Below are positions 18,307-51,059 of a stretch of DNA of 64,000 bases, piece after piece. Under the pieces are notes generated by a model. The model had not been told where the DNA came from. It searched no databases and saw only the letters and a program-made list of their open reading frames with translations. The stretch lies in the sequence record OZ035799.1. One strand, given 5' to 3'. Positions within the stretch are counted from its first letter, which is position 1. The number at the start of each line of letters is the position of its first letter. A program made the position numbers and the translations under genes. The DNA is from Justusliebigvirus alia.

Positions 18307-21182
18307 TGTCAAGAATTAAGCACAGAATTGACAATGTTTTTCAACTGATCGATGGACATATTCAGTTCTTAGATCGTAATACAGGTTTAACTGTAGATCC
18401 TACAGTGCAACACTATGTATTAAACCCACAAAACGTTCTAGCTAATAACAGACACTTTATAAACTGGACTGCTCAAGAAGGGCAACCAAACGGGGATGCT
18501 ACAACAGAAGGTCAATCCGTGCTTATTCTTGGTTGCGCTTATGCATACCTAGCTTCCGGCGATACAAAGTATTTAGACTCTGCTAAAAAATATTGGCAAG
18601 CCTATATAGATTACTTCTTTGGTGGTCAACCTATCCCAGATCCGCCAGCAAAATATCGCCCTAACTGGATTATTAACGGTAAAGAACCACGTCTTGCACA
18701 CTACCCTCTTACAGATGATGGCTACCCTACACACGGAGGTTTTAAGGGTAGCTTAATGACGTGGACTAACGGTAGAACAGTTATTCCTCATGGTGCTCCT
18801 CATTGGGGAGAATACCTTGACAAAGCATGGTTTGCTTTTAATGGTAATCTAGGATGGAACTCTGTAAACGCTACAGTATATGCTGTTAATGCAGATGGTA
18901 CAACAGATTGGTCTAAGAAGGGAGATCAATGGGATGTTGATTGGATCATTGATCGTCTAGGACGTAAAGTTGATTGGGATGGAAATATCTTAGAAGAAGG
19001 TTTTCCAACATCTCAATACGGAACAGTTCAACTAAAAAATACTTCTGTAAACGGTACATATAAATTTAACTACGCGACTTGTAACCCTGTTGAACACGGT
19101 GGTTATTTAATGGAGCGTAACACTATGTGGCATAACAGACCAGTTAACGTTCCGGTAGAAATGGGCTTTCAGGATAATGCGTCAGATGCTGAAACTTGGT
19201 GGTGTGATGCTAATTACCTGATGTACCAAATTACAGGAGAAAGAAAATATTGGCTATGCTGGCAGTCTTCACTGTTAGTGTGTCAAGATTACTCAAACAT
19301 TGATATGTTTGATAAATTCTTCCGTAAGTCTACATATGCAACTATCCCGTTTACAGATGGCATCTCTTACGATTATTCATATCCATCTACAGCAATACCT
19401 AAATATTCAAGAGATACTTTAGGCTATATTGTTATTAGACAAGATGTTGCTGCTCAAACAACATTAGAACAGCAAGCCATTTGGTTTAAAGTTGATCAGA
19501 ACTCTAAGTTACGAGTCCAGTTTCAAGGTGTAGATGACGCAGGACATGGTATTCTTTTCCGTCCAGAGTTGGAATTAAGTAAGACCAAAGATGAAAATAA
19601 CACAGTAACTTACCGCTGTGGCTTACCACTAGGTACAGCTAATATGACAAGCATGGATATTCCACTATCCAGCTTTATGAGAAGTACCCCTCCTAGTGGT
19701 GGAACATATATTATTGCAGATCCGCGAATTATTGTTGACTGGGGTGACAATACTGTGGTACAATATAAGTATGTAACAGGTATTGCTGGAACTAATAATG
19801 ACCAGATTGTTACTGCATCAATGGATACGGATGGTGGTGTTACTGTTGGTTTTTGGTTAACTCCTACATCAAAAGCTAATGTTAAGTCTATTACATATAG
19901 AACATATGAAGATGACTTTAACATGACTATCACGGATGCTCAAGGTTGGAGATGGTGGGCTATGCTGCCTAAAACGCAAGGGGCATGGAGTACGAAGACT
20001 TTATCAGCCTCTGCTTTTAAGTTAAGTGCTTACCAGCCTAATCATCCAGAAACAGATCCTAAACCTTCAGCAATAAATCTTACTGCTGTAGATCAGGTAA
20101 ATTTAGTTCTTGATACGGCTCCTGTCAATGGTTTAACAGGAACAATAGATTTCTATTGTATTAACGATGTACCTGAAAGATATTCGTCATCTTCTGGTGA
20201 TGATTATACCATGTACTTCCGTATTACTGTACAGGCTTCAAGTCCTCATACTGCTAAGTTAGGTGATTGTACTATTATTGACTATAAGTTAAATAGTCTT
20301 AATTACACACCAGGAATAATTCCATTCTCTAATATCAGTGACCCAAACACTGCATTATACGATGGATGGCGTGGTATTCCATACCCAGGATACCAGTATC
20401 CTTCCTTATACTGTTTCGCAGGTAGGGATATTGATTGGACACGTTTAAACAACAGTATTGATTTCTTGTATGATGCTCAAATGTGGTTTTATAACACGTT
20501 TGATCCTGTGATGCCTGGGCCTATGGCACAAGCATATGTGTGGGATCGTTGGGATGCAAGAAAATACGGTGAACCTAATACGTTTACAATGAAACACTGG
20601 AATGAAAAAGCGTGGGATGGTTATGAAGCTCGTGCATTCTATTGTGCTTGTCATGCTGTATACGAACTTGTACAAAGAGGAGAAACACCTCCTGAAAAAC
20701 TAGTAACTGTTTGTAAAAATTGGATCAACTACCTTAAATGGTTCCAAGACAATAATGATGGAAGAACACCAACTATCTTTAATCCAGATGGTACAGTTCT
20801 TGCACCTATAGATGACTTTACTAGTCATATGTCTGCACTGTTTATGGCGGGTTGTTCAATCATGGGCTTGGCAGGTTATGATTCACAAATTCCAAACATT
20901 GGTATTGTAGCAGACAGATGTTTTGATCTGATTCAGCAAAACTATATTGTGCTTTCCCCTAACCATCCGATGAATGGTTCCTGGAGTGTTGCACCACGCC
21001 CAGATTCAGATAACGGAATGTTCTTTGGTTTCCATGCTGGAGAACTATTACGTGGTTTTGGTTTATATGCCTTGTATCGTAAACTAAACCCTCAAAACGC
21101 TTTACCAATTTTGGATAATAGTAACATACCGACACTAACTGTTCTAACTATGAATGATATTAGTGTTGATGTAACCAAATAA
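18306..21182 (+). CDS. Large baseplate/structural protein
   Basis: 958 aa ORF in the baseplate operon; Trp/Tyr-rich. Confidence 0.4.
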   Translation: MSRIKHRIDNVFQLIDGHIQFLDRNTGLTVDPTVQHYVLNPQNVLANNRHFINWTAQEGQPNGDATTEGQSVLILGCAYAYLASGDTKYLDSAKKYWQAYIDYFFGGQPIPDPPAKYRPNWIINGKEPRLAHYPLTDDGYPTHGGFKGSLMTWTNGRTVIPHGAPHWGEYLDKAWFAFNGNLGWNSVNATVYAVNADGTTDWSKKGDQWDVDWIIDRLGRKVDWDGNILEEGFPTSQYGTVQLKNTSVNGTYKFNYATCNPVEHGGYLMERNTMWHNRPVNVPVEMGFQDNASDAETWWCDANYLMYQITGERKYWLCWQSSLLVCQDYSNIDMFDKFFRKSTYATIPFTDGISYDYSYPSTAIPKYSRDTLGYIVIRQDVAAQTTLEQQAIWFKVDQNSKLRVQFQGVDDAGHGILFRPELELSKTKDENNTVTYRCGLPLGTANMTSMDIPLSSFMRSTPPSGGTYIIADPRIIVDWGDNTVVQYKYVTGIAGTNNDQIVTASMDTDGGVTVGFWLTPTSKANVKSITYRTYEDDFNMTITDAQGWRWWAMLPKTQGAWSTKTLSASAFKLSAYQPNHPETDPKPSAINLTAVDQVNLVLDTAPVNGLTGTIDFYCINDVPERYSSSSGDDYTMYFRITVQASSPHTAKLGDCTIIDYKLNSLNYTPGIIPFSNISDPNTALYDGWRGIPYPGYQYPSLYCFAGRDIDWTRLNNSIDFLYDAQMWFYNTFDPVMPGPMAQAYVWDRWDARKYGEPNTFTMKHWNEKAWDGYEARAFYCACHAVYELVQRGETPPEKLVTVCKNWINYLKWFQDNNDGRTPTIFNPDGTVLAPIDDFTSHMSALFMAGCSIMGLAGYDSQIPNIGIVADRCFDLIQQNYIVLSPNHPMNGSWSVAPRPDSDNGMFFGFHAGELLRGFGLYALYRKLNPQNALPILDNSNIPTLTVLTMNDISVDVTK

Positions 21183-21190
21183 GGAAAATA

Positions 21191-23350
21191 ATGAAACAGG
21201 CTATTTTTACTGTAACTCGAAATACGAGAGTAAATGCCAGTTCATTCAGCTATAAGACCGTCGATGGAACGGCGGTCGCTGGTAGAGATTATGTAGCTAA
21301 ACAGGGAACAGTAACGTTCCCTTCTGATGCAGATTCTGCTACTGTAGTGGTTGATGTATATGAACGTCCGGCAAACTCTTTAGATCTTTATTTTACTCTT
21401 GAGATTACTAGCATAAGTCAAAATAACATGATGATCAATGAAGAAATTCGTTGTGTTATTACGACTGATCAATCGAATACAACCCCGCTAACTTGGCCTG
21501 TTGTGAAGTCTAGAATGTTTGATCCTAAGTTTTGGACAATAGATTCTCAAGCAACAGAGAGTTGTTCTATTATCTCTAATGGTGATTCTTTCACAGCAAG
21601 AATGGTTAATAGGACAGTGGCTGGTCTTGCTGGGATTATTTGGTCAACTTACGATAAATATGATCACAAAGGATTAGGCTACCAAGAACATTCTGACTTA
21701 AGTAAAGAGAAACTTTGGTTTAAAATGGAACTTAGTCAAGGTGTTCCTGGATTAAAAGAAGAAAAATTAATACCATCCTTAACAGTGACACTGAAGGATG
21801 AAACAGTTCATTATGTATCTCTAAACTTTTATGCAGAAGAAGTTTCAGAAGATGGTAAGACAGCAACAATCAAACTAGATTTCTCAAATTTAAAATCTGG
21901 GCCAGAAAATGATATTGTTGTTGACACTACACAGATAGATAATATGTTCTTCTCCTTGATCTCCACAAGGTATCAAGAAATTGAAGATATTATTCCTGTA
22001 GACAATGTGGATCTTTCCTTTAAGTTTACCATACTGGAGCCTGATACTGGTTACAGTATGATGAATATGGGTAATTTAAATGTTCCGGCGCACACCATAA
22101 GAATGTGTACATCTTATGATGATATGTATAACCTAACCCCGGAGCGAGTTATTTCTAACACCTATAGATTAGGTTATAGAGATATGATTAACCATTATAA
22201 TGGTATGTCACACTATTATCAATTTAGTTGGGATGCTGGCTCTAATAAATGGGCTTTGAACAGAACAGAATATTTAAACCCAGCAACAGAAGCCTGGTTT
22301 GATAATTTCCACGCTAATGCAAAAGCTATGGGCTACACAGTAATGAACTCCTTAAGTTTTGAACTTATGAGTACAGTGTGTCCTGTAGAATGGGTACAAC
22401 ATACTTGGAATGATGATCTGGCTGCTACAGGTTATGAGCCACCAAGTTATGTTTTATCGCCTTCAATTGATGAAGGGATGAATTATTTACAAGGTGTAAT
22501 AAATAAGATAGCTTCTATATCCGCTGCTAATGATCTTCCGGTTATTATTCAGGTTGGTGAACCGTGGTGGTGGTATAACACAGCTACCAATCTACCGTGT
22601 ATTTATGATTATACAACCAAAGTTGCATTTAATAATGAAACTGGATTATATGCACAAGATGTTGGTACAGTTAAGAATTATAAAACTGGTACACCATATG
22701 ATGAATATTATGCATTCCTATCTAAAACATTAGGACTGCGTGTTGCTAAATTTGCAACAGATACTAGATTAGCATATCCTGGAGCAAAAGTTACATTGTT
22801 ACCATTTGTACCATCCATCTTAGGTAACGGTATGATGGAATTTGTTAACTTCCCTAAAGATTATTATATCCCAGAAAACTTTGACTTTTATTGTTCAGAA
22901 TGTTATGATTGGTTGTTGGAAGGTAAGATGGAAAGATCTTTTGACGCTATCACAATACCTAATGAGCAACTAGGTTTTAGTTATGATAAGATACATTATC
23001 TTGCAGGGTTTGTTCCAGATGCAACTCTAGCACCATTATATGGCTTTGATCCTGAATCAAACTATAGGACATATTTGTGGAAAATGATTATAGGTAATAT
23101 TGTATTGAATGACCAGAAGTTTGTTGGTTTATATCAATACATATGGGCTTATCCACAAATAATGCATGATTCAATAACTGTTCTTAATTCAAAATCCCAA
23201 GTTTTTTATATGGGTAATGTGCCTTTGAATTGCTATTTGCAAGATATCACTCTTAAACAGGTAAATGTTACGATTGCCACCATAAGTGGAATTACATTAG
23301 CCACTAAATCTGGAGAAGATTTAGTAACAACACAAAAATTTTATATATAG
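21191..23350 (+). CDS. Large structural protein (baseplate or fibre-associated)
   Basis: 719 aa ORF between baseplate genes and the first tailspike. Confidence 0.4.
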   Translation: MKQAIFTVTRNTRVNASSFSYKTVDGTAVAGRDYVAKQGTVTFPSDADSATVVVDVYERPANSLDLYFTLEITSISQNNMMINEEIRCVITTDQSNTTPLTWPVVKSRMFDPKFWTIDSQATESCSIISNGDSFTARMVNRTVAGLAGIIWSTYDKYDHKGLGYQEHSDLSKEKLWFKMELSQGVPGLKEEKLIPSLTVTLKDETVHYVSLNFYAEEVSEDGKTATIKLDFSNLKSGPENDIVVDTTQIDNMFFSLISTRYQEIEDIIPVDNVDLSFKFTILEPDTGYSMMNMGNLNVPAHTIRMCTSYDDMYNLTPERVISNTYRLGYRDMINHYNGMSHYYQFSWDAGSNKWALNRTEYLNPATEAWFDNFHANAKAMGYTVMNSLSFELMSTVCPVEWVQHTWNDDLAATGYEPPSYVLSPSIDEGMNYLQGVINKIASISAANDLPVIIQVGEPWWWYNTATNLPCIYDYTTKVAFNNETGLYAQDVGTVKNYKTGTPYDEYYAFLSKTLGLRVAKFATDTRLAYPGAKVTLLPFVPSILGNGMMEFVNFPKDYYIPENFDFYCSECYDWLLEGKMERSFDAITIPNEQLGFSYDKIHYLAGFVPDATLAPLYGFDPESNYRTYLWKMIIGNIVLNDQKFVGLYQYIWAYPQIMHDSITVLNSKSQVFYMGNVPLNCYLQDITLKQVNVTIATISGITLATKSGEDLVTTQKFYI

Positions 23351-23358
23351 GAGTAAAA

Positions 23359-25608
23359 ATGTCAACTACAATTACTAATTTACCCGAAACATCAAAAGTT
23401 AATGGTTCTGATTACCTGGTTTTAGACCAACCTGATAAGACTGTTAAAAGCACAGTTTCCAACTTTCTTACTGACACTGGGGTGGTTTTAGCCACCCAGC
23501 TAAAAGATGTTTCTGGAGCTACCAAGTATCCAGAACTTCAGATTGCACGCTGGCGAGACGAGGGAGATATCAGAGGGTGGGGCACGGAAACGAACGGTGA
23601 TGTTACCGAAGCAATCATTAAGGCGGTAGCGGCGACAAGCGGCACTATCATTGTGCCTTCAGGCAATTATACGGCCACGCCAACCTTGGAGCAGGTTCCT
23701 TCTGTACTGAAATTGCTTTCACAAGCAGAGTTTCGAGGATCATTAGATATCAATCTCCCTGCGGGAACAGTTAACCTTTCTGAAAAAACGGTAATACGTT
23801 CGCAAAATGTCCATAACCTGTCTATCTCTGGGGTTAAATACTCGACATCCCTAACCGGTCTGGTAAGTGTTAGTGGCAGTCCAAAGGCATATCTGGTAAC
23901 TATCTCTCTGGCAGATGCATCGAATGTTTCTGTCGGCGACGTGGTGATGATTCGCCACGACATCTCAGGAACTGGAGGGTATCACATTCACTGTGGTGGG
24001 TGGGTTGTGGATGCGGTATCTGGTAATAATGTCACCGTAAAAAATACCTGCCACCTTTCTGCATTCCCGACATCAACGATTACTAGTGGGTCGGTAGTCA
24101 TTCTTAAAAGCATTCTGAAATACACTGGCTGTGATGGTATTGTGGCTGCTGGCTCGGGATGTATTAAGACGATAAATGGTGTCGCTATTGTCGGTGATTA
24201 TGATCTGGCAACAGGCTCTGGAACTATCGGGGCACACGGCTTCTCCCTTACTACTCCAGACATAACCGTTGCTAGTCCAGACCCATCCAATGAAGTTTTT
24301 GATGCATCAGGCTGCATAGCTATTGGGCCTGATTTGGCGATTGTTGGGTTCGGTGAGCAGGGGTTTGTAGCGTCAGAGAGATCTGGTGTGGTTTCAAACT
24401 TTATATCTTCATGCTCTAACCGCAAGCGCGGTGTATATTCTGAAGGCGCTCATATACGCGGTAAATTTATGCTTTGCTCAGGGAATGGTGAGGATGGGAT
24501 TATTTCAGACATTGGTGGCGCAATTCAGGCTAACGGTTCAGTTTGCTCAGGAAATGGACTTAACGGTTTTTGGTCATTCAACCACAGTCTCTTGAGTGCT
24601 CCTGGCGGGATTTCGTGTGGTAACTTCACGAATGGTGCGGAAGCGCGCGGACCAGGTGCATTAAATCTGCAAAATGGGAAGAGCTATTTAAACAGGCTAA
24701 TTGGTGTAACCGCGTCAAATGGTGGGACGGTTATTTTTACTGGCTCAACATCAACGCAGAATGGCACGGATGGACTGGTTGCAGTTTATGATGGTTTGAT
24801 CTCTGCCGCCAATGCCAGCTCAGTGGGCAACGGACGCTATGGGGTTGCCGTAACTCACGCAAAAATTGTGCTTACAGGCTCAGGAAGCGTAAGCGGAAAT
24901 TCAACTGTAGATTTCATCGATAACGGCGAGGGTACTATAATTAAGCCGGATGGAACGATGCTGCCAAGAAAGGCTGCCCCGCAAAGCATCCTTTCTATTC
25001 GTAACGCCAATCTTTCCGGTGCTGATGTTACGGCATCATCAATTGGTGATATTACCGTCTCGCAAAGAAACACATCCTCGGGTGCATTAACCCCCCTGTA
25101 TGTATTCAAATCTGACGGAACCCAGCATCCAGTCAATGATGCCACGCAGAACCTTGGCAGGGCAAGCAATCGCTACAATGTTGGTTTCTTCGCTGGCGGA
25201 ACACAGTCAACTTCAGATGCCACACTTAAAGACCCTATCCGAGAGTTCAATCAGGCCGAACTCAATGCAGCAATGCGCATCTCGAAAATGTTTGGATTCT
25301 GGACGTGGCTTGATGATGACAATAAGCGTTTGCATGCAGGGACTACGGTTCAAGCAGTGTTAGCTGTTCTGGAAGAGGAAGGTCTAGACTGGCGTAGCTA
25401 TGGATTTATCTGTTTTGATGAATGGGATGATGAATATACCCCAGTAACCATTGAGGTAGATGGCGAAGTCGTTGAAACAGGGGAAATGAAATTAGTGCGT
25501 GAGGCTGGTTCTGTCTGGCAACTGCGCGATCAGGAATTTGACCGTTTCGTTATGCGTGGACTTTCTGAAAGGCTGAGTATTATAGAAAGTAAGCTGGATT
25601 TACTGTAA
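23359..25608 (+). CDS. Tailspike/tail fibre with parallel beta-helix and C-terminal intramolecular chaperone (peptidase S74-like)
   Basis: Gly/Ser/Asn-rich beta-helix repeats (SGNGEDGIISDIGGAIQANGSVCSGNGLNGF). C-terminal ~130 aa begins at TSDATLKDPIREFNQAELNAAMRISKMFGF, resembling the autocleaving chaperone domain of T5 L-shaped fibre and endosialidases. GC content rises sharply within the gene. Confidence 0.7.
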   Translation: MSTTITNLPETSKVNGSDYLVLDQPDKTVKSTVSNFLTDTGVVLATQLKDVSGATKYPELQIARWRDEGDIRGWGTETNGDVTEAIIKAVAATSGTIIVPSGNYTATPTLEQVPSVLKLLSQAEFRGSLDINLPAGTVNLSEKTVIRSQNVHNLSISGVKYSTSLTGLVSVSGSPKAYLVTISLADASNVSVGDVVMIRHDISGTGGYHIHCGGWVVDAVSGNNVTVKNTCHLSAFPTSTITSGSVVILKSILKYTGCDGIVAAGSGCIKTINGVAIVGDYDLATGSGTIGAHGFSLTTPDITVASPDPSNEVFDASGCIAIGPDLAIVGFGEQGFVASERSGVVSNFISSCSNRKRGVYSEGAHIRGKFMLCSGNGEDGIISDIGGAIQANGSVCSGNGLNGFWSFNHSLLSAPGGISCGNFTNGAEARGPGALNLQNGKSYLNRLIGVTASNGGTVIFTGSTSTQNGTDGLVAVYDGLISAANASSVGNGRYGVAVTHAKIVLTGSGSVSGNSTVDFIDNGEGTIIKPDGTMLPRKAAPQSILSIRNANLSGADVTASSIGDITVSQRNTSSGALTPLYVFKSDGTQHPVNDATQNLGRASNRYNVGFFAGGTQSTSDATLKDPIREFNQAELNAAMRISKMFGFWTWLDDDNKRLHAGTTVQAVLAVLEEEGLDWRSYGFICFDEWDDEYTPVTIEVDGEVVETGEMKLVREAGSVWQLRDQEFDRFVMRGLSERLSIIESKLDLL

Positions 25609-25673
25609 TTAAGAGCCGCTATCTCCTACTATGATGGCGGCAACCTTAAAATATTTAAGTGGGGAGCCACCTA

Positions 25674-25919
25674 ATGAGAAAATTTTTAATAGGTATGTTT
25701 TGTACATATCCTAATAATAAAGTCAGTTCTACTAAAGTTTGGAATGCTATTGGTATGATTGTTATGTCCAGTATGTTTATTTATTTGGGAATTGATAAAG
25801 AAATTCCTGAATGGATGGGCTGGGCTTTTGTTTTTATGATCACACCATCCAGATTAATGAAGAATTTAATAGATTTACGTTGGGGCAGATCACCTGCCCC
25901 TGATAAGGAGGATAATTAA
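25674..25919 (+). CDS. Small membrane protein (two predicted TM helices)
   Basis: Start moved to the ATG at 25674 (RBS GGGGAG). Hydrophobic segments FLIGMFCTY and IGMIVMSSMFIYLGI / WMGWAFVFMI. Confidence 0.4.
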   Translation: MRKFLIGMFCTYPNNKVSSTKVWNAIGMIVMSSMFIYLGIDKEIPEWMGWAFVFMITPSRLMKNLIDLRWGRSPAPDKEDN

Positions 25920-27406
25920 TGGCAGATTATGGTTTAACAGATGCTGGTTTTGTAATTCCAACGTTTGATGATATTTTAAATAATTATATGACAGCATTGA
26001 AAAACACTTTCGGTGCAGATACAGCTACATCTGAAGATACTGTCTTTGGTCAACTGTTCCGTATTATTGCATACACAGATTACACCCTTTGGGAAGGTAT
26101 GCAAGGTGTTTACAATACCCAAACCTTAGATGGTGCAGAAGGTATTTACCTTGATGAAATCTTCTCTAAAAGAGGTTTTTATCGTAAAGCTGCTTCTGCT
26201 GGTAGTGGTTATGCTTATGTTAAATCTAACAATAAGGCAGCTTGGACTTATGAGCTAAGCACAGATGTTTATTTTAATGCCGATAACGATTTGACATATT
26301 ATGTCAGTGCACCAACAATGTTGAATGCTAAGATTGGAGCATATACCATTTCTAAAGCAAACGCAACAGCTTCTGGTGAAACTTCTATTACTTTCTACAT
26401 TCAAAGTGCTATTGATGGTGGTCTTAACAGTAAAACATTAAGTCCTAGCAATACAAACTTTATTTTAGATCTCACGAATTTCATTAAAGCTAACGTATCA
26501 ACAACAGATCGTGCTTTAGTATGGAATGATGCTAGTAATGTTTATATGGGTTATAATCCAGAAGATAATGTTAACCCAATAGGTCTAGTAACACCAGTGA
26601 AATTTTACGCATCTATTGCAATTGGTACAAAATGGAGTGAAATTCCAGTTACGTGTTCAGACGTTGGTTATAATCCAGTAGGTACAGAAAGTATCACAGG
26701 TATTTCTTCAACGTTTACAGGCTTTTTAGATACAGGTAACTTCTATCCATTCTCTCCAGGTACAGATGTTGAAACAGATGCAGAATTCCGTTCTCGTTTC
26801 AATGATAATATGGATGAAGCTAATGCTGCTACTCGTGCTGCTATTGTTAAAGCTCTGCTACTGACAGATGGTGTGACAAAGGTTAAGATTTATGATAACC
26901 CTACATTACATGATCAGGAACATGCTCCAGCTATGACATTCCAGACTATTGTGTATGGTGGTACAGCAGAAGAAGTTGCACGGGTTATTTATAATACTAA
27001 GCCTATTAACACCTTAACTTATGGTACAACAGCAATTACTATCATAACAGAAGACGGCGGTCAAGAAGTAATTCGTTTTTCTCCTGGTGACAATGCTGAA
27101 TATTCACTTAGACTAGTATATCAAACTGGCAATGGTAGTGTGTTAAGTACAACAGAAAGAGAAAATATTGTTTCTGCTCTTTCAAATCTACAGGCTTATT
27201 TTGAGCTAGGGTCAACAGTAACTAACGATCAGATAAAAGGTGTAATTTATTCTGCACTTGCGTTCGGACGCTTGACTTCTCTCCGTGTTTATGTTAAACT
27301 TAATACTGAGGATGACAGTAAATATAATGAGGGAGATATCACTCCAGCGTACAATGTTGTACCATCCTTTGACCTTGATAATATTTCCTACGAGTACGGA
27401 GTCTAA
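25919..27406 (+). CDS. Tail fibre/baseplate-associated structural protein
   Basis: 495 aa ORF with overlapping stop/start; position only. Confidence 0.4.
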   Translation: MADYGLTDAGFVIPTFDDILNNYMTALKNTFGADTATSEDTVFGQLFRIIAYTDYTLWEGMQGVYNTQTLDGAEGIYLDEIFSKRGFYRKAASAGSGYAYVKSNNKAAWTYELSTDVYFNADNDLTYYVSAPTMLNAKIGAYTISKANATASGETSITFYIQSAIDGGLNSKTLSPSNTNFILDLTNFIKANVSTTDRALVWNDASNVYMGYNPEDNVNPIGLVTPVKFYASIAIGTKWSEIPVTCSDVGYNPVGTESITGISSTFTGFLDTGNFYPFSPGTDVETDAEFRSRFNDNMDEANAATRAAIVKALLLTDGVTKVKIYDNPTLHDQEHAPAMTFQTIVYGGTAEEVARVIYNTKPINTLTYGTTAITIITEDGGQEVIRFSPGDNAEYSLRLVYQTGNGSVLSTTERENIVSALSNLQAYFELGSTVTNDQIKGVIYSALAFGRLTSLRVYVKLNTEDDSKYNEGDITPAYNVVPSFDLDNISYEYGV

Positions 27407-27408
27407 AA

Positions 27409-28038
27409 ATGGCAGTGAGTGTTGACCATGTGACAACGTGGGATAGTATCAATGAAGATGTTAAAGACCTACTGATTGAAGATTTTAAATCTTCTCCGAA
27501 CATTGTCAAACTACTCTATATCATTTCTAGCGAAAAACAAAAGATAGATCAGGCAATGATCTATCTTGCCAAACACCGCTTAATCTCTACTGCAACTGGT
27601 AAGTATTTAGATCTTATTGGTGAAGAGATGGGGATGGAAAGAAATGGTGCTACAGATGAAGAGTATCGTACAATATTAAAAATCAGGGCTTATCGTGTTG
27701 CGTCTTCTGGTACGCGAGATGATATCATTGATATGTTCGCTCGTTTTACAGGAACAGAAAAAGAAACGATTAATACATACGTTGGATTAAATAAAACATT
27801 CGACGTATTCTTTTATAATTTGTGTCTACAATCCGATCAGGCAGTAGCACAGTTACTTAACGTTTTCCCGATCCTAAGTAGTTATCGCTTAGGTGCGAAA
27901 GCGGGTGCAGCCTTTGGTTTCACTTCCTATTATGCCACAACTCCACCTCATGGTATAGGTGGTTTAGGTTCTCTTTACACAGAGGCTGAAGGAGATGATA
28001 CAGGGCGAATGACTATGCTGATAGCTCAAATAGAATAA
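27409..28038 (+). CDS. Hypothetical structural protein
   Basis: ORF in the fibre module. Confidence 0.35.
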   Translation: MAVSVDHVTTWDSINEDVKDLLIEDFKSSPNIVKLLYIISSEKQKIDQAMIYLAKHRLISTATGKYLDLIGEEMGMERNGATDEEYRTILKIRAYRVASSGTRDDIIDMFARFTGTEKETINTYVGLNKTFDVFFYNLCLQSDQAVAQLLNVFPILSSYRLGAKAGAAFGFTSYYATTPPHGIGGLGSLYTEAEGDDTGRMTMLIAQIE

Positions 28039-28051
28039 GGAGTTACTCTTA

Positions 28052-29035
28052 ATGGCAAAGCCACAATACTACCCTGACTGGGCGACACAAACAGTAACCC
28101 TCCCAGGAACGGGAAACACAAACAAAATTAGACCAAAAGAAACCATCCGTAATGTTGGTATGGACTTTGGTCAGATTATGACTTGTGAAGAAATGAACTG
28201 GATCTTAAACAATATTGGGTCTTGGATTCGCTATATGCAAGATGAATTCTTCCCAACATTGCCTACTACATATCTTCCTATAGTCGGTACTAAAATTACA
28301 ATGGCAGGTGATGCTACAGGTGAAGTTACATGGAATGGTAATGCTGCTGTAACATTATCTATTCAAGTCGTAGATAACAGCCATAATCACTTATCAGCTA
28401 ACATTACAGACGCAACATCAAACCAAGTTGTAGGGAATGTCCTTGTTAAGCGTGATAATGGTGGTGCTATCTATGCAGGTGATATTTACACTTGTGGTAC
28501 AGGTGCTACAGATCCTGCAACATTATTTTTTAGAAACTATAATGGACAAACAGTAGGCAATATGTCTTCTGAACCAGGTGCAGGTGGTCAACTCTATATT
28601 TATAGAATAAATCCATCTACTGGAGGAACATCTTGTGGAGTCCGTTTGTATGATGCAGGTTATGTTTTAATAGACAATCCTCGTTCTAATTCTGGTCAAG
28701 ATACTGGCAATGGTAATGCTCTTGTAAGATTAGATTATCTTAACTCAAGACTAAACTCATTGCAAAGTACACTGCAAAATAATATTAACAACGTTAATAG
28801 CAACTTGCAAGGCCAAATTAATAGCATTAACAATAGAGTTTCTTCTGTTGTGTCTGCTATCCGTCTTGGAACACGTATCCAAGCTGGTGTATCTGAATCT
28901 CCTTTCTATGCTGGTCACGTGATCACAGGTTGGGGTTTTGGTGACAAGAAAGAACTTCGTGGTGCTTGGTATTGGTCAGCCCCGCTACAATATTATATTA
29001 ATGGTAGCTGGATAACAGTAACCAACGTTTCGTAA
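28052..29035 (+). CDS. Side tail fibre protein
   Basis: Central coiled coil rich in Asn/Ser/Gln heptads (LDYLNSRLNSLQSTLQNNINNVNSNLQGQINSINNRV). Followed directly by a fibre assembly chaperone. Confidence 0.55.
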   Translation: MAKPQYYPDWATQTVTLPGTGNTNKIRPKETIRNVGMDFGQIMTCEEMNWILNNIGSWIRYMQDEFFPTLPTTYLPIVGTKITMAGDATGEVTWNGNAAVTLSIQVVDNSHNHLSANITDATSNQVVGNVLVKRDNGGAIYAGDIYTCGTGATDPATLFFRNYNGQTVGNMSSEPGAGGQLYIYRINPSTGGTSCGVRLYDAGYVLIDNPRSNSGQDTGNGNALVRLDYLNSRLNSLQSTLQNNINNVNSNLQGQINSINNRVSSVVSAIRLGTRIQAGVSESPFYAGHVITGWGFGDKKELRGAWYWSAPLQYYINGSWITVTNVS

Positions 29036-29044
29036 GGAGAGTCT

Positions 29045-29596
29045 ATGAAAAAAGACGTTATTTTTACAGGTTTTGAATTGTATGAACCAGAATTAACAGA
29101 AGAAAATATTCTTTATCTTTCTGTTGGTGGTGGTTTTTTGCAAGACAAAGATGGTAACGACTGGTATCAGCTTCAAAAAACTTTGATGGTAGAATATCCC
29201 GACGCTTATTTTATTACCTTAGATGATAATAATATTGTACGTGGTGCTACTAAAGATGTTACTACCTATTTCCCTGCCGGACAATCTATTTTAGTTACAT
29301 ATAATGTACCAGATAAAATAGAAGATGAAAGTAATATTGGCTCTTGGCAATATGTTGAAGGTAAGTTTGTTCCTCACAATAATCTTGCTATTGAAGATGC
29401 TACTCTTAAGTTAGAAAAGGAGCTAACTTGGGCTACGAATCAAGTGTCTGCGATTCAAGATTTAGAGGAATTACAAGGTTTATCTGAAGAACAAAAAGAT
29501 TGGTTAGGAAAAGTTAAACTCTATCGTGCAACATTAATTCAAATTAACGTTGAAGATGCACCTAATATAACTTGGCCTACAAGACCTAAGAAATAG
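29045..29596 (+). CDS. Tail fibre assembly protein (Tfa-like chaperone)
   Basis: C-terminal motif EEQKDWLGKVKLYRATLIQINVEDAPNITWPTRP matches the conserved Tfa C-terminal signature (...W..Y...L..vd...ap.i.WP..P). Confidence 0.65.
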   Translation: MKKDVIFTGFELYEPELTEENILYLSVGGGFLQDKDGNDWYQLQKTLMVEYPDAYFITLDDNNIVRGATKDVTTYFPAGQSILVTYNVPDKIEDESNIGSWQYVEGKFVPHNNLAIEDATLKLEKELTWATNQVSAIQDLEELQGLSEEQKDWLGKVKLYRATLIQINVEDAPNITWPTRPKK

Positions 29597-29605
29597 GGGC
29601 AATGT

Positions 29606-29947
29606 ATGGAGCTAACAGAAGTATGGGATATCGCTAAAGAGGCGATTATCCCTCTTATTGGCGTAATCTGGGTGGTCTTCAAACAGAAGATAGATGATAT
29701 GGCAAGTGATTTGGATAAAATGGAAGACAAATACCGCGAACTAGAAAAGAAGTTGGTGTTTGTTGAATCCACTTATGCTACCAAAGCAGAACTTGCTCAA
29801 ATGCTTAACCAGATCAACTCTACATTAATGGCAAATAATACTGCCTTAGAACAGAAGATTGAAAAAATAATGGATTTAAAAAATGCTCCTGTTCAATTAA
29901 TGTTAGAGGAGATTACGAAGCGCACACAAAGTAAGGACAAAAATTAA
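29606..29947 (+). CDS. Membrane-anchored coiled-coil protein
   Basis: N-terminal hydrophobic helix IIPLIGVIWVVF followed by a predicted coiled coil; sits inside the fibre module. Confidence 0.4.
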   Translation: MELTEVWDIAKEAIIPLIGVIWVVFKQKIDDMASDLDKMEDKYRELEKKLVFVESTYATKAELAQMLNQINSTLMANNTALEQKIEKIMDLKNAPVQLMLEEITKRTQSKDKN

Positions 29948-32361
29948 TGGCGAATTTTCCAACATATCCTGCTACGACACTAGAACAAGGTGTTGATCTG
30001 GTTATATTCTCGTCTAACCAGATGCATGATGTTATTAATGGGGATGCTACAGCAACTGTAGAAACCGAAACAGGTTTAATACCTACACTGCGTAAAGCAC
30101 TTGTTGATAACTTCTTCTTTAAGAGTCCTGTTGCTTGGTCAGCAGGATCAACTGAAACTGTATTTAACCAGTTACGTTATTTTGAAAACGGTATCTTGAG
30201 TGGATACTATTATGCCCCATCTGCCACTACTGCTAACCCTGTACCTATGCAGGGTACACCTGTAGGAGATAGTAACTGGACTCTGTACGCTCTTAAAACT
30301 GAACAGTTAGCTTCAGATGTGTATCCTTGGTATTTTAAAGGTGCTACAGGATATGAAACAGAAATCAGTCCTCCTTATATCTTTGATAATGCTATTGTCA
30401 CCATTAACGGTGTAATTCAGATTCAAGGTGAAGCATTTACTATCAAAGATAGTAAAATTATTCTGGCAGAACCATTAGGTTTAGATCCGTCTACTGGTCT
30501 ACCTAACAAATTGTTTGCTTTTATTGGTAAAACAACAGCCTCTACTTCTTACGTAGAAAAAAACCTTTTGTCATCTACCACTGGTGCAGCAATGGTTGGT
30601 CTTCCATCTGGAGGCAACCTGTTACAAGCTCAATACTTTGTAACGCCTGAGCAGTTTGGTGCAATTGGTGATGGAGTTACCGATGATACCCAAGCAATTT
30701 TAAAAACCATTACTTTCGCTAACACGAATAACATTCAAGTACGTGCAGATAAGAATTATAGATTCACAAGCTCAATTGCTATGTCTGGTATTCGTTGGTA
30801 TGGTGGTACATTCACTGGTAACGGTGGAACAATGATTTCTACTGTGTCCTGTTGGATGGAAAACGTTCGCTTTGAAAAATGTTATGTTAAGATGTTAGGT
30901 GGTGATTGCCGATTCTATCGTAATATCTTCTCCAACGCAACATCTACAGCAGCATTCTTAATGCAAGCAATGACAAGTGAAGGTACGTTGGACTTCAGTT
31001 ACAACGAAATGTATGGTTGTAAATATGCGATCCTGCAACAAGGTACTGGAGAAGTAATGACCTACGGGCGTTACTCTAACAACTATATTCACGATATTAA
31101 AGGTGATGCTATTGAACTTAACGTAGTTCAAAAACACTACACTGAAGGTTTGATTATCGAGAATAACCACATTGCTAACGTAGATGCTTCTGGACAAGGG
31201 GCAAACTGGGGTATTGGTATTGGTGTAGCAGGTAGTGGCCCATATGGTGTTGATGTTCCTGATTCACAATATGTACGTAACTTCAGTATCGTTGGGAATA
31301 GGGTTTACAATTGCCGTCAATGTTTACACGTTGAAATGGGTAAAAACTTCACAATACGTGATAATGAAGTTTATCCTAACACAGCAGTTTCAACAGGTAC
31401 AGGTTTAACTACTTGTGGTGTTGCATTATACGGATGCCAAGATTTTGAAGTTGATGGTTTAACTGGTTATCTGCTTAATGATCCGTCTGTTTCAACACGC
31501 ATGGTCTTTATTGACTGGGGTGTTAACAGTGGAAGATATGCGGGGCCACCAATTAACTTTACAATTAAGAATTTGGATATTCCAGAATCTTCAATTGAGA
31601 TTGCAACATCTGGATCAGATGACTGGGAAAACTCTACAATTGTTAGTAATATCAATTGTAATGTTTTTAAATGGCGTGGGCTACCATCTAGCTCTACCTT
31701 TAATAATATTCGTTGCCGTAGTATTGACTTTATTGGTCAACACGGAAGCGGAGAAGGAAGTGGTGGCGGTTTCTATACTCGCAGCCAATTCACGTATATG
31801 AAGTGGGTAGGATGTACAGCACTTAGCGGAGATGAAACAACAGTTTCTTTTGCTAAAATCTACACTGATCGTTGCGATCAGGTTGGAAATAACTTTGGTG
31901 TTCCAACTGCTGTTGATGGAACAGGTCATCGTGGGCCAGTTTTAACTACTATCTCTGAACAATATTTTACAGCTTATGATGAATTCCCAGGTGGGCGTGA
32001 ATTCCCTACTGGAACAGTTATTCATTGTGCAAGCGGTAAAAAACATGTTGTTACAGTAGGTGGTGCTTTCTTTAGTGCCAACGAGAAAATAAAAGCAACT
32101 GTTACAGGTCAAACCTATCTACAGTCTAATGCTTTAAACTGGGCTAGTAATGGCTACGCTAAAGCAGCAGGTACTAAGATTGTTATTCCAGGTGCAGGTG
32201 CAAATGGCGGCGATCTTGTGACAACTATAGCACGTGCTACATATGTGACAAATAGTTTGTACACAATAGATATTGCAGATCCAATTGTAACACCTACAGC
32301 AGAGAATACACAAATTAAAGCTCTGAATCCTGTTACTTTTGTTACTGTCAACAATGCTTAA
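29947..32361 (+). CDS. Tailspike with pectate-lyase-like right-handed beta-helix (putative depolymerase)
   Basis: Motif TPEQFGAIGDGVTDDTQAILKTI resembles the N-terminal signature of pectate lyase superfamily / polysaccharide-degrading tailspikes. 804 aa. Confidence 0.65.
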   Translation: MANFPTYPATTLEQGVDLVIFSSNQMHDVINGDATATVETETGLIPTLRKALVDNFFFKSPVAWSAGSTETVFNQLRYFENGILSGYYYAPSATTANPVPMQGTPVGDSNWTLYALKTEQLASDVYPWYFKGATGYETEISPPYIFDNAIVTINGVIQIQGEAFTIKDSKIILAEPLGLDPSTGLPNKLFAFIGKTTASTSYVEKNLLSSTTGAAMVGLPSGGNLLQAQYFVTPEQFGAIGDGVTDDTQAILKTITFANTNNIQVRADKNYRFTSSIAMSGIRWYGGTFTGNGGTMISTVSCWMENVRFEKCYVKMLGGDCRFYRNIFSNATSTAAFLMQAMTSEGTLDFSYNEMYGCKYAILQQGTGEVMTYGRYSNNYIHDIKGDAIELNVVQKHYTEGLIIENNHIANVDASGQGANWGIGIGVAGSGPYGVDVPDSQYVRNFSIVGNRVYNCRQCLHVEMGKNFTIRDNEVYPNTAVSTGTGLTTCGVALYGCQDFEVDGLTGYLLNDPSVSTRMVFIDWGVNSGRYAGPPINFTIKNLDIPESSIEIATSGSDDWENSTIVSNINCNVFKWRGLPSSSTFNNIRCRSIDFIGQHGSGEGSGGGFYTRSQFTYMKWVGCTALSGDETTVSFAKIYTDRCDQVGNNFGVPTAVDGTGHRGPVLTTISEQYFTAYDEFPGGREFPTGTVIHCASGKKHVVTVGGAFFSANEKIKATVTGQTYLQSNALNWASNGYAKAAGTKIVIPGAGANGGDLVTTIARATYVTNSLYTIDIADPIVTPTAENTQIKALNPVTFVTVNNA

Positions 32362-32365
32362 TTAA

Positions 32366-32390
32366 AAAGGGGCGAAAGCCCCTTTATAAA
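32366..32390 (+). terminator. Hairpin terminator after the tailspike gene
   Basis: AAAGGGGC-GAAA-GCCCCTTT, then ATAAAAGG (weak U tract). Confidence 0.45.
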
Positions 32391-32402
32391 AGGAGTAGTA
32401 AA

Positions 32403-34364: not shown

Positions 34365-34366
34365 TC

Positions 34367-34392
34367 AAAGCCCCTTCGGGGGCTTATTATTT
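34367..34392 (+). terminator. Rho-independent terminator
   Basis: AAGCCCC-TTCG-GGGGCTT followed by ATTATTT. Confidence 0.6.
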
Positions 34393-34403
34393 AAGGAGAT
34401 TAA

Positions 34404-37217: not shown

Positions 37218-37250
37218 TAAAAAAGGAGCCTATTGGCTCCTTTTCTTTTA
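37216..37250. terminator. Bidirectional terminator at the point where the two gene blocks converge
   Basis: AGGAGCC-TATT-GGCTCCT flanked by an A-run upstream and a T-run downstream. Genes switch from plus to minus strand here. Confidence 0.7.
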
Positions 37251-37252
37251 TC

Positions 37253-37684
37253 TTAATCAGTGAAAATTACGCTTACATCTTCTTTAGAAAAGAGTTTATG
37301 ATCTTCACCTTTTGTCTCAAGAGTTTCATACAGGTTAAGAAGTTCTGAAACATCTTTCTCTACCAGTTTCTTCAATGTTGCAATTTTCTGTTTGCGACTC
37401 TTAATACGTTCAGCTACAACCTTACGTTGGTATCCAGCAGTACGATAACCTGAGAAAGTTACACCAGTGAGACTTGCAGTTACAGGATCGTAATGACGTT
37501 CAATCTGAAATTTATTAAAAGGTACAGCGTCATCACGAATAATCTTCCCGCCATTACTTACTTGACGAAGACCAGTAACTTGTTCTAGTCGTGCCATAGA
37601 AATCTTTGGAGACAGACCAGAGTCCAGGTTCATACCATTGTTAATCAGTGCTTTCAGGGTGATTTTGCTGTTCAGTGTACTCAT
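37253..37684 (-). CDS. Hypothetical protein
   Basis: 143 aa ORF with GGAGGA RBS located inside the 3' end of the methyltransferase gene; no recognised motif. Confidence 0.45.
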   Translation of the reverse strand: MSTLNSKITLKALINNGMNLDSGLSPKISMARLEQVTGLRQVSNGGKIIRDDAVPFNKFQIERHYDPVTASLTGVTFSGYRTAGYQRKVVAERIKSRKQKIATLKKLVEKDVSELLNLYETLETKGEDHKLFSKEDVSVIFTD

Positions 37685-38372
37685 TTAGTCGTTCCTCCGC
37701 TTGCTTAAAAATATTTACATCGGCTTCACAGCCTAAGTATTCTCTACCTGTTAAAAGTGCCGCAACTTGTGTTGTTGCACTTCCAGAGAAGAAGTCTAAG
37801 ACTACATCTCCTTCGTTGGTGTGTATATTAATAAGGTCACAAAACAAAGTCAAGTGTTTTTGTGTTGGATGAAAACGATCTGCTCCTTGATAGATAGGAT
37901 ACTCAAACACACCCTTATGGTAGGAAGCATTGAAGGTTGGCTTAGAACCTTTAACACAAACAATAGCCATTTCTTTAGCGTTACTAAGATAGTTAACACC
38001 ACTGTTGATGGGTACAGGGTTTGTTTTAATCCATTCGATAGTACGGAACATACGAAAACCAAGCGGTTCAAGGATTTCACGTAGCTCCTGGATCTTCCAG
38101 ATATCATACCAAACTATGCAAGTACCACCTTTTCTAAGCACCCTATAGGCTTCTTTGAATACTTCTTTAAAGTAAGGAATATCTACAACATCCCAATCAC
38201 CAAAGTTGTAAGATACACGGAATCTATCCGTATCTTTTCCAGTAGGCTCTCCAGACTGAAAATTTGTGTCACGAGAAATAGCATATGGTGGGTCAGTAAG
38301 AATCAAATCTACACTATTGCTTTCGAGGGTTTGCAGGTAGTTTAATGCAGTGTTGTTTACAAATTCGCTCAT
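37641..38372 (-). CDS. DNA methyltransferase (amino-methyltransferase, DPPY motif; N6-adenine or N4-cytosine)
   Basis: Motif IV LILTDPPYA precedes motif I VVLDFFSGSATT (beta-class order). No restriction endonuclease partner seen, so it looks like an orphan methyltransferase. Confidence 0.8.
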   Translation of the reverse strand: MSEFVNNTALNYLQTLESNSVDLILTDPPYAISRDTNFQSGEPTGKDTDRFRVSYNFGDWDVVDIPYFKEVFKEAYRVLRKGGTCIVWYDIWKIQELREILEPLGFRMFRTIEWIKTNPVPINSGVNYLSNAKEMAIVCVKGSKPTFNASYHKGVFEYPIYQGADRFHPTQKHLTLFCDLINIHTNEGDVVLDFFSGSATTQVAALLTGREYLGCEADVNIFKQAEERLNEYTEQQNHPESTD

Positions 38373-50349: not shown

Positions 50350-50383
50350 CTTCTATTTAAAATATGCGCCCCGAAGGGCGCTA
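50350..50383 (-). terminator. Hairpin terminator after TerD (minus strand)
   Basis: GCGCCC-TTCG-GGGCGC followed by an A/T-rich tail. Confidence 0.45.
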
Positions 50384-50390
50384 TGATTTA

Positions 50391-50987: not shown

Positions 50988-51059
50988 AATTTATTATCTC
51001 CTTTGTTGTTAATTTACGTTGTCTATTTTACTAATCTTTTCTACAAAGTCAAGCGTTTT

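Follow-up and report, generated by a model that had tools for sequence, protein, structure and literature searches.

A GC-rich stretch in the tailspike gene of a phi92-like phage is very probably a horizontally exchanged receptor-binding module with a built-in chaperone

The window analysed here is a stretch of 64,000 nt from sequence record OZ035799.1. Within it, the open reading frame at 23359-25608 (+ strand, 749 aa) encodes a tailspike, and its GC-rich stretch is very likely a horizontally exchanged receptor-binding module with a built-in chaperone, occupying the tailspike slot, a variable one, of a phi92-like E. coli phage. Sequence comparison places the gene, in a phi92-like myovirus (Justusliebigvirus), at the site that the endosialidase gp143 occupies in phi92. 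The gene would thus be a chimera consisting of an anchor, a linker and then, in codons 80-743, a module of foreign composition. The direct evidence comprises composition, junctions, distribution, fold and the chaperone motif.

Position of the tailspike gene and its junctions

The features of the gene and its surroundings are as follows.

21191..23350, + strand: phi92 gp142 homologue, upstream flank and conserved backbone gene; tail-sheath-like fibre with Calx-beta, NCTSP_N and NCTSP TIM-barrel domains
23348..23352, + strand: AGGAG ribosome-binding site, read from the sequence; 6 nt before the ATG, overlapping the upstream gene's stop codon
23359..23508, + strand: universal N-terminal anchor, aa 1-50; AT-rich (GC 0.373), kept across phages with different spike bodies
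23509..23595, + strand: GC-rich linker, aa 51-79 (VSGATKYPELQIARWRDEGDIRGWGTETN), common to 'long-anchor' alleles including the phi92 endosialidase
23596..25586, + strand: mobile module, aa 80-743, comprising the beta-helix body and the chaperone; other phage types carry it downstream of unrelated N-terminal adaptors
23596..25212, + strand: mature receptor-binding, presumed glycan-degrading part, aa 80-618; right-handed parallel beta-helix, then stalk
25213..25605, + strand: C-terminal intramolecular chaperone (Peptidase_S74), aa 619-749; PF13884, with sequence and fold matches
25587..25673, + strand: last 7 codons, stop codon and 65-nt intergenic spacer, specific to an allele group in Stephanstirmvirinae
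25674..25919, + strand: phi92 gp144 homologue, small membrane protein, downstream flank; backbone homology restarts at its ATG (blastn restart 25674-25679)

The product of the upstream gene matched Pfam PF23845 at 1e-81, as well as PF23844 and PF03160, and phi92, alia and KKE7M carry the gene at ~98% identity; gp142 of phi92 has been cited as the NGR-glycan binder. The identical AGGAG motif is annotated in the phi92 record. Downstream, the VEcB record annotates the gp144-homologue coding sequence at the position equivalent to 25674; the list of open reading frames also holds an earlier GTG start for this gene, at 25659.

Synteny between the gp142 and gp144 homologues, together with the N-terminal anchor that the two proteins have in common, supports positional orthology to phi92 gp143. 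Comparison with related Justusliebigvirus genomes showed that in most of them only the N-terminal 43-75 codons (129-224 nt) are conserved, with both flanks ~98% identical. Homology ends at 23487 in alia, at 23508 in KKE7M and at 23582 in phi92, and restarts at 25674-25679 in all three. Of the 83-132 phage records that matched, only 5-6 contained the cassette. In 52 relatives the remainder of the fibre cluster (28000-38000) is conserved, indicating that the tailspike slot is the variable one. The segment 25587-25673 is absent from phi92, alia, KKE7M and the carriers outside the lineage, but is identical in ETEC-TG despite a body with only ~60% protein identity. In the Phapecoctavirus 536P1, ~23303-25738, which includes the whole gene, is 99% identical, whereas the flanks are ~75% identical. 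Deviant composition, presence or absence with sharp junctions, and identity incongruent with the backbone mark the gene as a horizontal cassette. An assembly artefact was rejected as an explanation, since genomes deposited independently of one another contain the cassette (for example VEcB, from Russian sewage, and several separate OZ03577x/OZ035728 records).

Composition of the gene, its anchor and its linker

An earlier note on this DNA had described a GC-rich island from 23520 to the stop codon, with codon preferences shifted towards GGC, GCG and CGC. The computed values bore this out. The GC content of 23520-25608 was 0.475, compared to 0.379 in the rest of the window, which corresponds to a z of 5.4 against windows of 2,089 nt elsewhere (n = 1,152; mean 0.380, sd 0.018, maximum 0.437). 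Sliding 300-nt windows showed that the profile is not uniform, with a plateau of 0.46-0.50 from ~23450 to ~25550 and flanks of 0.30-0.37. The rise is therefore real, while the noted value of 'roughly 50%' was a slight overestimate. Maximum-likelihood GC change points fell at 23473 and 25577. The GC3 of the gene was 0.402 (0.20-0.31 in nearly all other long open reading frames), and the mobile module itself (23596-25586) had a GC of 0.474 and a GC3 of 0.406. GGC accounted for 24% of Gly codons in the gene versus 8% in the rest, GCG for 18% of Ala codons versus 4%, and CGC for 37% of Arg codons versus 9%, and codon usage as a whole differed strongly (summed chi-square 252, 41 df, p = 3e-32).

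The anchor (23359-23508) showed 98-100% nucleotide identity in phi92, KKE7M, alia, ETEC-TG and 536P1. It is borne by 41 protein clusters, on at least 36 different bodies, and the long form (anchor plus linker) is found in 13 protein clusters. Codons 1-50 would dock the spike to an invariant baseplate or fibre scaffold, a role presumed here, and codons 51-79 would form a GC-rich linker found in a subset of alleles. In gene nt 151-224 the linker has a GC of 0.541 and is identical to phi92 gp143 at 59 of 74 nt, after which homology collapses; at the protein level, its motif is seen again in PDB 9vvr_A, at aa 212-261. The earlier note had proposed an AT-rich anchor of ~50 codons. The first 150 nt are indeed AT-rich and genome-like, but the anchor of this allele is ~79 aa long, made up of the universal aa 1-50 and the GC-rich linker. 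Because the linker lies within the anchor, the GC rise begins inside the anchor, before the imported body; it starts at ~23473, upstream of the module junction at 23596, and part of the 'island' is therefore linker and not imported body.

The module outside the lineage

The results of blastn showed that the module matches the Sashavirus 536P12 (a 9NA-like siphovirus) at 86.4%, a prophage of E. coli FORC_031 at 85.0% and a 40.6-kb siphovirus-like contig, L010, at 90.3%. The module end points agree within 1 nt in these three carriers, and it is at the same positions (23596/7 and 25586/7) that the module joins three left flanks and three right flanks, each unlike the others. Prophage matches came from ETEC strains, at 85-86% nucleotide identity, and two of the records are named O6:H16. 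Among protein homologues, the same body is found on PF18668, PF09008, PF03906 or unassigned N-termini; the alleles form at least 170 clusters. When the body was compared by tblastn with 50,697 phage records, only nine records matched. The module copies had a GC of 0.475 in Sashavirus (backbone 0.42), 0.476 in L010 (backbone 0.43) and 0.466 in the prophage (backbone 0.46-0.51).

Together with the composition and the flank comparison, these matches to enterobacterial phages and prophages support the proposal that the receptor-binding part was swapped onto a conserved N-terminal anchor. That the swap was 'recent', as had been suggested, agrees with the 99% identity within Stephanstirmvirinae and with patches of 98% identity between the cassette and outside carriers, but not with the overall identity of only 85-90% in the sampled outside carriers. 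Exchange takes place at the whole-gene, module and sub-module scales.

Fold and chaperone

The monomer model showed a central domain with a right-handed parallel beta-helix fold, in which aa 354-514 form seven regular coils of 23 residues each. Solved beta-helices all shared only 7-17% sequence identity with it. Invariant acidic and basic columns (D259, D379, D384, R357, K369 and Y360) were found, for which solved homologues are too distant to give a mechanism. The beta-helix body would bind a surface polysaccharide and probably cleave it; alternatively, the spike may bind without cleavage.

The C-terminal domain matched PF13884 with 33.7 bits (cutoff 22) over aa 619-676 of 749. Sequence matches included T5 pb1 4uw8 (1.5e-26), 7y5s, 6eu4 and phi29 gp12 3gud, and Foldseek returned 4uw8 (E = 2.5e-11), 3gw6 and 3gud (TM normalised to target 0.72-0.77). 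The beta-helix and C-terminal intramolecular chaperone expected from the earlier reading were thus confirmed. In the motif SDATLK, Ser619 was present in 45 and Lys624 in 42 of 61 aligned homologues, the rest lacking the domain. We take this pair to be the equivalent of the dyad Ser911/Lys916 of endoNF, and the predicted site of self-cleavage lies between Thr618 and Ser619. The chaperone would drive folding of the trimer, a state suggested by the chaperone family, and would then cut itself off at Thr618|Ser619.

Relation to known systems

The closest known counterpart is the VEcB tail fiber YP_009987349.1 (JR328_gp217), the same gene in the same slot, with 99.4% identity over all 2,250 nt and flanks of 98.8%; the two genes differ by only a few SNPs. 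The VEcB receptor-binding gene is bordered by conserved DNA motifs, and horizontal transfer was reported to link its product to receptor-binding proteins from prophages of O6, O11 and O153 strains (89.8, 66.1 and 61.7% aa identity, respectively) (Witte et al., 2023; PMC10408124). The present record is labelled Justusliebigvirus alia, and the type isolate of that species, MN850632, has a different cassette.

The phi92 gp143 protein (endosialidase endoN92) shares the slot between the gp142 and gp144 homologues, 147 of 150 nt of the anchor and the linker positions given above. It also shares the plan of anchor, enzymatic body and self-cleaving Peptidase_S74 chaperone, and the phi92 record annotates a gp143-CTD. 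However, its body is unrelated to that of the tailspike described here and has a backbone-like GC of 0.374, forming no island, and the target of the present spike is not polysialic acid. A Pfam search of the tailspike protein found none of the endosialidase domains PF12217, PF12218, PF12219 and PF12195, indicating that the gene encodes no endosialidase; such domains are present in two anchor-sharing proteins (P0080 and P0083).

The chaperones of K1F endoNF (3gw6), the T5 L-shaped fibre pb1 (4uw8) and phi29 gp12 (3gud) are homologous in sequence and fold over aa 573-747 and share the C-terminal position and, at the domain start, the Ser with a Lys five positions further on. They differ in that the passenger here is a beta-helix spike and that cleavage here is predicted. 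The tailspikes of P22, HK620, Sf6 and 9NA and the CBA120 TSPs are likewise modular, with an adaptor and a beta-helix, but lack a Peptidase_S74 chaperone, and the adaptor here is a short Stephanstirmvirinae anchor.

Tailspike module swapping is a well-documented route to host-range change in such phages. The present gene offers a clean, quantified case of the retargeting of one of several spikes in phi92-like phages with a broad host range, and the nucleotide-exact module limits (aa 80-743; mature part aa 80-618) may be used to engineer or predict host range. Tailspike modularity, slot variability and the near-identical VEcB cassette were already known (PMC10408124), and current understanding is unchanged.

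Origin of the module and direction of transfer

The module circulates, attached to different adaptors, in E. coli phages and prophages that are unrelated to one another, and would have entered the AT-rich lineage by recombination; through homologous recombination in conserved flanks, the whole gene would then have spread between Justusliebigvirus and Phapecoctavirus. Since the module GC of 0.47 equals that of prophage backbones and not that of the myovirus (0.38), the temperate-phage pool is the likely ultimate source. Outside Stephanstirmvirinae, sampled carriers are at most 90% identical over the whole module; the actual donor is therefore unsampled, and it is composition that gives the transfer its inferred direction.

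That the GC richness is intrinsic, arising from a Gly/Ser/Ala-rich beta-helix and from selection on the codons of an abundant structural protein, with the major capsid gene as a parallel, is hardly credible. The protein is in fact rich in Gly (12.4% versus 8.2%) and Ser, and codon positions 1 and 2 have a GC of 0.503, a level also reached by the native fibre gene at 32439-34364 (0.51). Yet that Gly-rich fibre gene stays at a GC3 of 0.236, whereas the GC3 of the tailspike gene is shifted too. The major capsid gene (5817-6818; GC 0.466) has a GC3 of 0.396 with no sign of transfer, and GC3 alone is therefore no proof. Cassettes in this one slot range in GC from 0.374 (phi92) to 0.517 (ETEC-TG), copies in unrelated phages have the same GC, and the sequence is entirely missing from relatives with 98% identical flanks; on sequence comparison, junction mapping already contradicts an intrinsic origin. 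The reverse direction, in which a module native to Stephanstirmvirinae was exported to siphoviruses and prophages, is unlikely. It would fit the fact that all 99%-identical copies lie in Stephanstirmvirinae, and divergent alleles on the same anchor (ETEC-TG, body ~60% aa; P0034, 50%) suggest some residence time. Against it, the module GC exceeds that of the myovirus backbone by ~10 points and those of the Sashavirus and L010 backbones by 4-5 points but equals that of the prophage backbone (0.46-0.51), and most homologous protein clusters have PF09008 or PF18668 adaptors, many of them on E. coli chromosomal contigs. It seems improbable that, beyond selection on random recombinants, the module boundaries are actively reused recombination joints, with motif-guided or nuclease-assisted swapping across phage families. 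The 5' joint comes after the GC-rich linker 'ARWRDEGDxRGWG', which recurs in other spike families, and in one carrier (L010/L011) the genes on both sides of the spike gene encode DUF723, T5orf172 and MUG113 domains, which we read as homing-endonuclease-like.

Candidate receptor

The body is shared by prophages of O6:H16 ETEC and by a pair of phages, unrelated to each other, that take their names from strain 536 (O6:K15:H31), and the O6 O-antigen is the most likely target, with the K15 capsule as the alternative. The spike is thus a candidate O6- or K15-specific depolymerase, relevant to uropathogenic strain 536 and O6:H16 ETEC. Depolymerization of the K15 capsule, a GlcNAc-Kdo polymer, in place of the O6 O-antigen is possible but doubtful. 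The protein in the same slot of phi92, gp143, is a capsule depolymerase, and Witte et al. (PMC10408124) suggested a non-O-antigen target, such as a K antigen, for this subtype. The K15 locus is present in both strain 536 and ETEC FORC_031 (PMC7387560), and O6 and K15 are therefore confounded. On the other hand, the nearest prophage relatives were reported from O6 strains, and the one study found on the receptors of 536_P1 and 536_P12, which dealt with LPS- and K15-related resistance, mapped 536_P1 resistance to LPS genes (77% of the mutations); K15 over-production blocked 536_P1 adsorption, and a receptor role of K15 could not be demonstrated by its authors (PMC11495123). The phiEB phages depend on O6 (PMC12488582); none was among the nine tblastn matches to the body, and an O6 link was not obtained by this route.

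Other sequence features

Witte et al. (PMC10408124) reported a terminator, 'motif three', after genes of this type. A simple scan found no + strand terminator in 25609-25673; its only hits were a weak site within the gene and another on the minus strand, which does not exceed chance expectation. An inverted repeat, GCCGC...GCGGC, lies at 25616-25646, with a long loop and without a T-run. Three minus-strand open reading frames within the tailspike gene (23667-23963, 24198-24425 and 24855-25169) were set aside as by-products of its GC richness.

Genome and gene slot

The segment 21000-28000 was found to be 100% identical, at the same coordinates, to OZ035770.1 ('Justusliebigvirus alia', 148,442 bp) and 98.8-99.1% identical to phage VEcB, both being phi92-like myoviruses (subfamily Stephanstirmvirinae). 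The genes at the locus are as follows.

21191-23350, + strand: upstream gene, with tail-sheath-like NCTSP domains as in phi92 gp142
23359-25608, + strand: tailspike ORF of 749 aa, with an AGGAG site 6 nt upstream
25659-25919, + strand: small membrane-protein gene, followed by a Baseplate_J wedge-protein gene

In the phi92 record, gp143 lies between the gp142 and gp144 homologues and is an endosialidase precursor whose C-terminal chaperone can be cleaved off; gene order places the gene at 23359 in this slot. The tail-fibre genes at 28000-38000 are conserved in 52 relatives, implying that the gp143-type slot is the hypervariable one of the fibre cluster. By the ORF list, the membrane-protein gene would begin with the GTG at 25659; in annotated relatives the start codon is the ATG at 25674, preceded by a GGAG site. 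Backbone matches also included four to five entries carrying a Campylobacter phage label (host Campylobacter jejuni), plus one entry each for Acinetobacter, Serratia and Citrobacter; such matches to an E. coli phage backbone may reflect mislabelling or contamination.

Composition of the island

The earlier note had described by eye a GC-rich island at 23520-25608, preceded by about 50 AT-rich codons and preferring the codons GGC, GCG and CGC, and computation bore this out. In 300-nt windows, GC content rises from 0.30-0.37 in the flanks to a plateau of 0.46-0.50 between about 23450 and 25550. The GC content of 23520-25608 is 0.475, compared to 0.379 in the remainder of the 64-kb window (z = 5.4; 1,152 equal-length windows elsewhere gave a mean of 0.380, an sd of 0.018 and a maximum of 0.437), and a two-change-point likelihood fit placed the island edges at 23473 and 25577. 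Nucleotides 1-150 of the gene are genome-like (GC 0.373). The GC3 of the whole gene is 0.402, against 0.20-0.31 in nearly all other ORFs of at least 200 aa. All three codons are enriched over background (GGC, 24% versus 8% of Gly codons; GCG, 18% versus 4% of Ala codons; CGC, 37% versus 9% of Arg codons), and the overall shift in codon usage is significant (summed chi-square 252, 41 df, p = 3e-32).

The sole other gene of similar composition, at 5817-6818 (+ strand; GC 0.466, GC3 0.396), encodes the major capsid protein (Phage_cap_E, 1.4e-38), and its composition most likely reflects the codon bias of high expression rather than transfer. High GC3 alone is therefore no proof of foreign origin, and it is the comparative evidence that decides the origin of the island. 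Two further ORFs differ in composition. The fibre gene at 32439-34364 (+ strand), which has a PF18668 TSP1/Gp66-type N-terminal domain and collagen repeats, has a high GC content at codon positions 1+2 (0.51) but, in contrast to the island gene, a native GC3 (0.236). The 248-aa ORF at 50364-51110 (+ strand; GC3 0.569, positions 1+2 GC 0.349) lies in a region whose other genes are on the minus strand and is probably a spurious antisense ORF.

Junctions with close relatives

In most relatives about 69% of 21000-28000 is covered at about 98% identity, and the uncovered piece is the island; the gene is thus not conserved as a whole. Pairwise blastn located the junctions.

Table. Limits of homology with close relatives
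Phage; homology stops; homology restarts
alia (MN850632); 23487 (gene nt 129); 25674
KKE7M; 23508 (gene nt 150); 25674
phi92; 23582 (gene nt 224); 25679

The restart point is the ATG annotated in VEcB for the gp144-like gene. These positions indicate that the replaced unit begins within the anchor-coding sequence and extends right up to the start of the next gene. When the 5' ends were aligned, nt 1-150 proved near-identical in all phages (147/150 versus phi92), as expected if only the N-terminal 50 or so residues were conserved. That limit was too strict for a subset including phi92, which also shares nt 151-224 (59/74 identical) before identity drops to 13/36. The latter stretch encodes VSGATKYPELQIARWRDEGDIRGWG and has a GC content of 0.541; because this linker is itself GC-rich, the compositional change point at 23473 lies upstream of the imported-body junction. 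The VSGATKYPELQIARWRDEGDIRGWG motif recurs at residues 212-261 of 9vvr_A, a solved tail spike of 843 aa, downstream of a far larger N-terminal part, suggesting that it acts as a general linker between modules.

The alia and KKE7M spikes have no fused Peptidase_S74 chaperone, and extra small ORFs lie inside the replaced segment, between the spike gene and the gp144-like gene (50 aa in alia, L007 4749-4898; 103 aa in KKE7M, L008 4978-5286). Cassettes in the slot thus vary not only in sequence but also in the genes they contain.

The module on other backbones

VEcB and Phapecoctavirus 536P1 both carry the entire gene, at 99.1-99.4% identity. The 536P1 alignment stays near-identical across about 23303-25738, with flanking identity of about 75%; judged from this alignment, it is a case of whole-gene transfer between genera via conserved flanks. 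Outside the Stephanstirmvirinae, the match to enterobacterial phages and prophages that had been anticipated was found: 23596-25586 is present on three other backbones, and its end points are identical in all of them.

Table. Carriers of the module (23596-25586)
Carrier; identity to this module; module GC; backbone GC
This window; reference; 0.474; 0.38
Sashavirus 536P12 (9NA-like siphovirus); 86.4%; 0.475; 0.42
Contig L010 (40.6 kb, siphovirus-like); 90.3%; 0.476; 0.43
Prophage adjoining yfgI/pdeF in ETEC FORC_031 (and in seven further genomes); 85.0%; 0.466; 0.46-0.51 (both GC values for the FORC_031 prophage)

Three unrelated left flanks (this window; Sashavirus and L010; the prophage) join the module at 23596/7, and three unrelated right flanks depart from it at 25586/7. 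Protein homologues that are 57-93% identical across the body (aa 80 to about 745) have at their N-terminus a P22 head-binding domain (PF09008), a TSP1/Gp66 N-terminal domain (PF18668) or a part of no assigned family; PF03906 N-termini occur on more distant body homologues (33-40% identity). PF18668, the domain of the fibre gene at 32439-34364, is also the adaptor that bears the island body in Sashavirus. Among the 120 protein clusters listed, 41 have the phi92-type anchor at their start, combined with at least 36 distinct bodies; the long anchor with linker is present in 13 of these 41. The island body itself was found in just 9 of 50,697 phage records. In eight O6:H16 genomes the prophage spike is split by IS100 (IS21-family istA/istB; L005 3453-5971 in strain M9682-C1), and it is intact at the same yfgI/pdeF locus in FORC_031 and the seven others.

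The module is a GC island in all lytic carriers but not in the prophage. As its GC content matches only the prophage backbone, we infer a source in the temperate-phage pool, the closest sampled outside copy being about 90% identical. Other cassettes in the slot range in GC from 0.374 (phi92 endosialidase) to 0.517 (Phapecoctavirus ETEC-TG), which fits diverse origins.

The spike protein and its candidate receptor

The predicted beta-helix and C-terminal intramolecular chaperone were both recovered. Pfam gave a single domain, Peptidase_S74 (aa 619-676), and a PDB sequence search matched aa 573-747 to the chaperone-bearing C-termini of T5 pb1 (4uw8, 1.5e-26), 7y5s, 6eu4 and phi29 gp12 (3gud). 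The chaperone domain begins S619-D-A-T-L-K624, with the Ser and Lys spaced as in the endoNF dyad; 4uw8 differs in having Ala at the position of the Ser. Of 61 homologues, 45 keep the Ser and 42 the Lys, the exceptions being without the domain. Cleavage here is predicted to release 131 aa and leave a mature spike of aa 1-618. The AlphaFold2 model, based on the 61-sequence alignment (mean pLDDT 84.9; mostly >90 at aa 80-600, <50 at aa 1-77), predicts a right-handed parallel beta-helix, and seven coils with a strict 23-residue period and invariant Asn and Gly columns occupy aa 354-514. The protein is thus chimeric: anchor (aa 1-50), linker (aa 51-79), beta-helix (aa 80-618) and chaperone (aa 619-749).

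By analogy with known families, the chaperone would nucleate trimer folding and then cleave itself off, the role and release that the phi92 record annotates for gp143. The anchor would dock the trimer onto the invariant scaffold of a baseplate fibre; cryo-EM work published in 2026 (PMC13450770) locates gp143 at the 'fiber I' tip. The beta-helix would bind, and probably depolymerise, a surface glycan, allowing the phage to reach its terminal receptor.

For this glycan the O6 O-antigen is the leading candidate, with close to an even chance of being correct. The body is carried by the mutually unrelated phages 536P1 and 536P12, both named after strain 536 (O6:K15:H31), and by prophages of O6:H16 ETEC, and the VEcB protein has 89.8% aa identity to a prophage protein of an O6 strain (Witte et al., PMC10408124). 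Resistance of strain 536 to 536_P1 was in LPS genes in 77% of cases and otherwise involved K15 over-production masking the receptor (PMC11495123). It is the LPS-gene resistance together with the O6 carriers that favours O6. The K15 capsule is a less probable candidate: it could not be shown to be a receptor of 536_P1 (PMC11495123), but the K15 locus is present in FORC_031 as well (PMC7387560), so that O6 and K15 are confounded. The remaining probability falls to a receptor other than O6 or K15.

Scales of exchange

Identity within the module is patchy. L010 is about 98% identical at 23610-23918, 24154-24504 and 25045-25208 and 72-84% identical elsewhere; Sashavirus and the prophage reach 98% over 24978-25394; and 24497-24946 is about 80-84% identical in every comparator. 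In the Phapecoctavirus ETEC-TG allele, identity of 98-100% is confined to 23233-23499 and 25408-25712, and the body has about 50-65% DNA and 60% protein identity. These patterns imply exchange at three scales: the entire gene, the module of body plus chaperone, and tracts a few hundred bases long.

The junctions, the carriers and the incongruent flank identity together support the earlier proposal of a receptor-binding part swapped onto a conserved N-terminal anchor, and the island is very probably the product of tailspike module exchange. Exchange of this type is ordinary and has been published before. The literature has already established the multivalent adsorption apparatus of phi92 with its variable spikes. 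In mining receptor-binding proteins of Justusliebigvirus, Witte et al. 2023 (PMC10408124) named the VEcB protein, whose gene is 99.4% identical in DNA to the present one, and linked it by horizontal transfer to prophage proteins. The present analysis adds a quantified GC and codon island, nucleotide-exact module boundaries common to three backbones, the transfer of the entire gene to Phapecoctavirus 536P1, the mosaic make-up of the module and the confounding of O6 with K15. These additions leave the existing picture unchanged.

A metagenomic allele, P0034 (756 aa), has an identical long anchor (aa 1-75) and an identical C-terminal end, SERLSIIESKLDLL, with a body only about 50% identical. It would seem that bodies in phi92-like phages are exchanged between two conserved arms, one formed by anchor and linker and the other by the end of the chaperone. 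Directly 5' of the homologous spike in L010 and in a second contig, L011, lies a gene with DUF723, T5orf172 and MUG113 domains, and another such gene is nearby in L010 (L010 222-791 and 5048-5710; L011 549-1424). We take these genes to be homing-endonuclease-like, and their position next to the spike may be relevant to cassette mobility.
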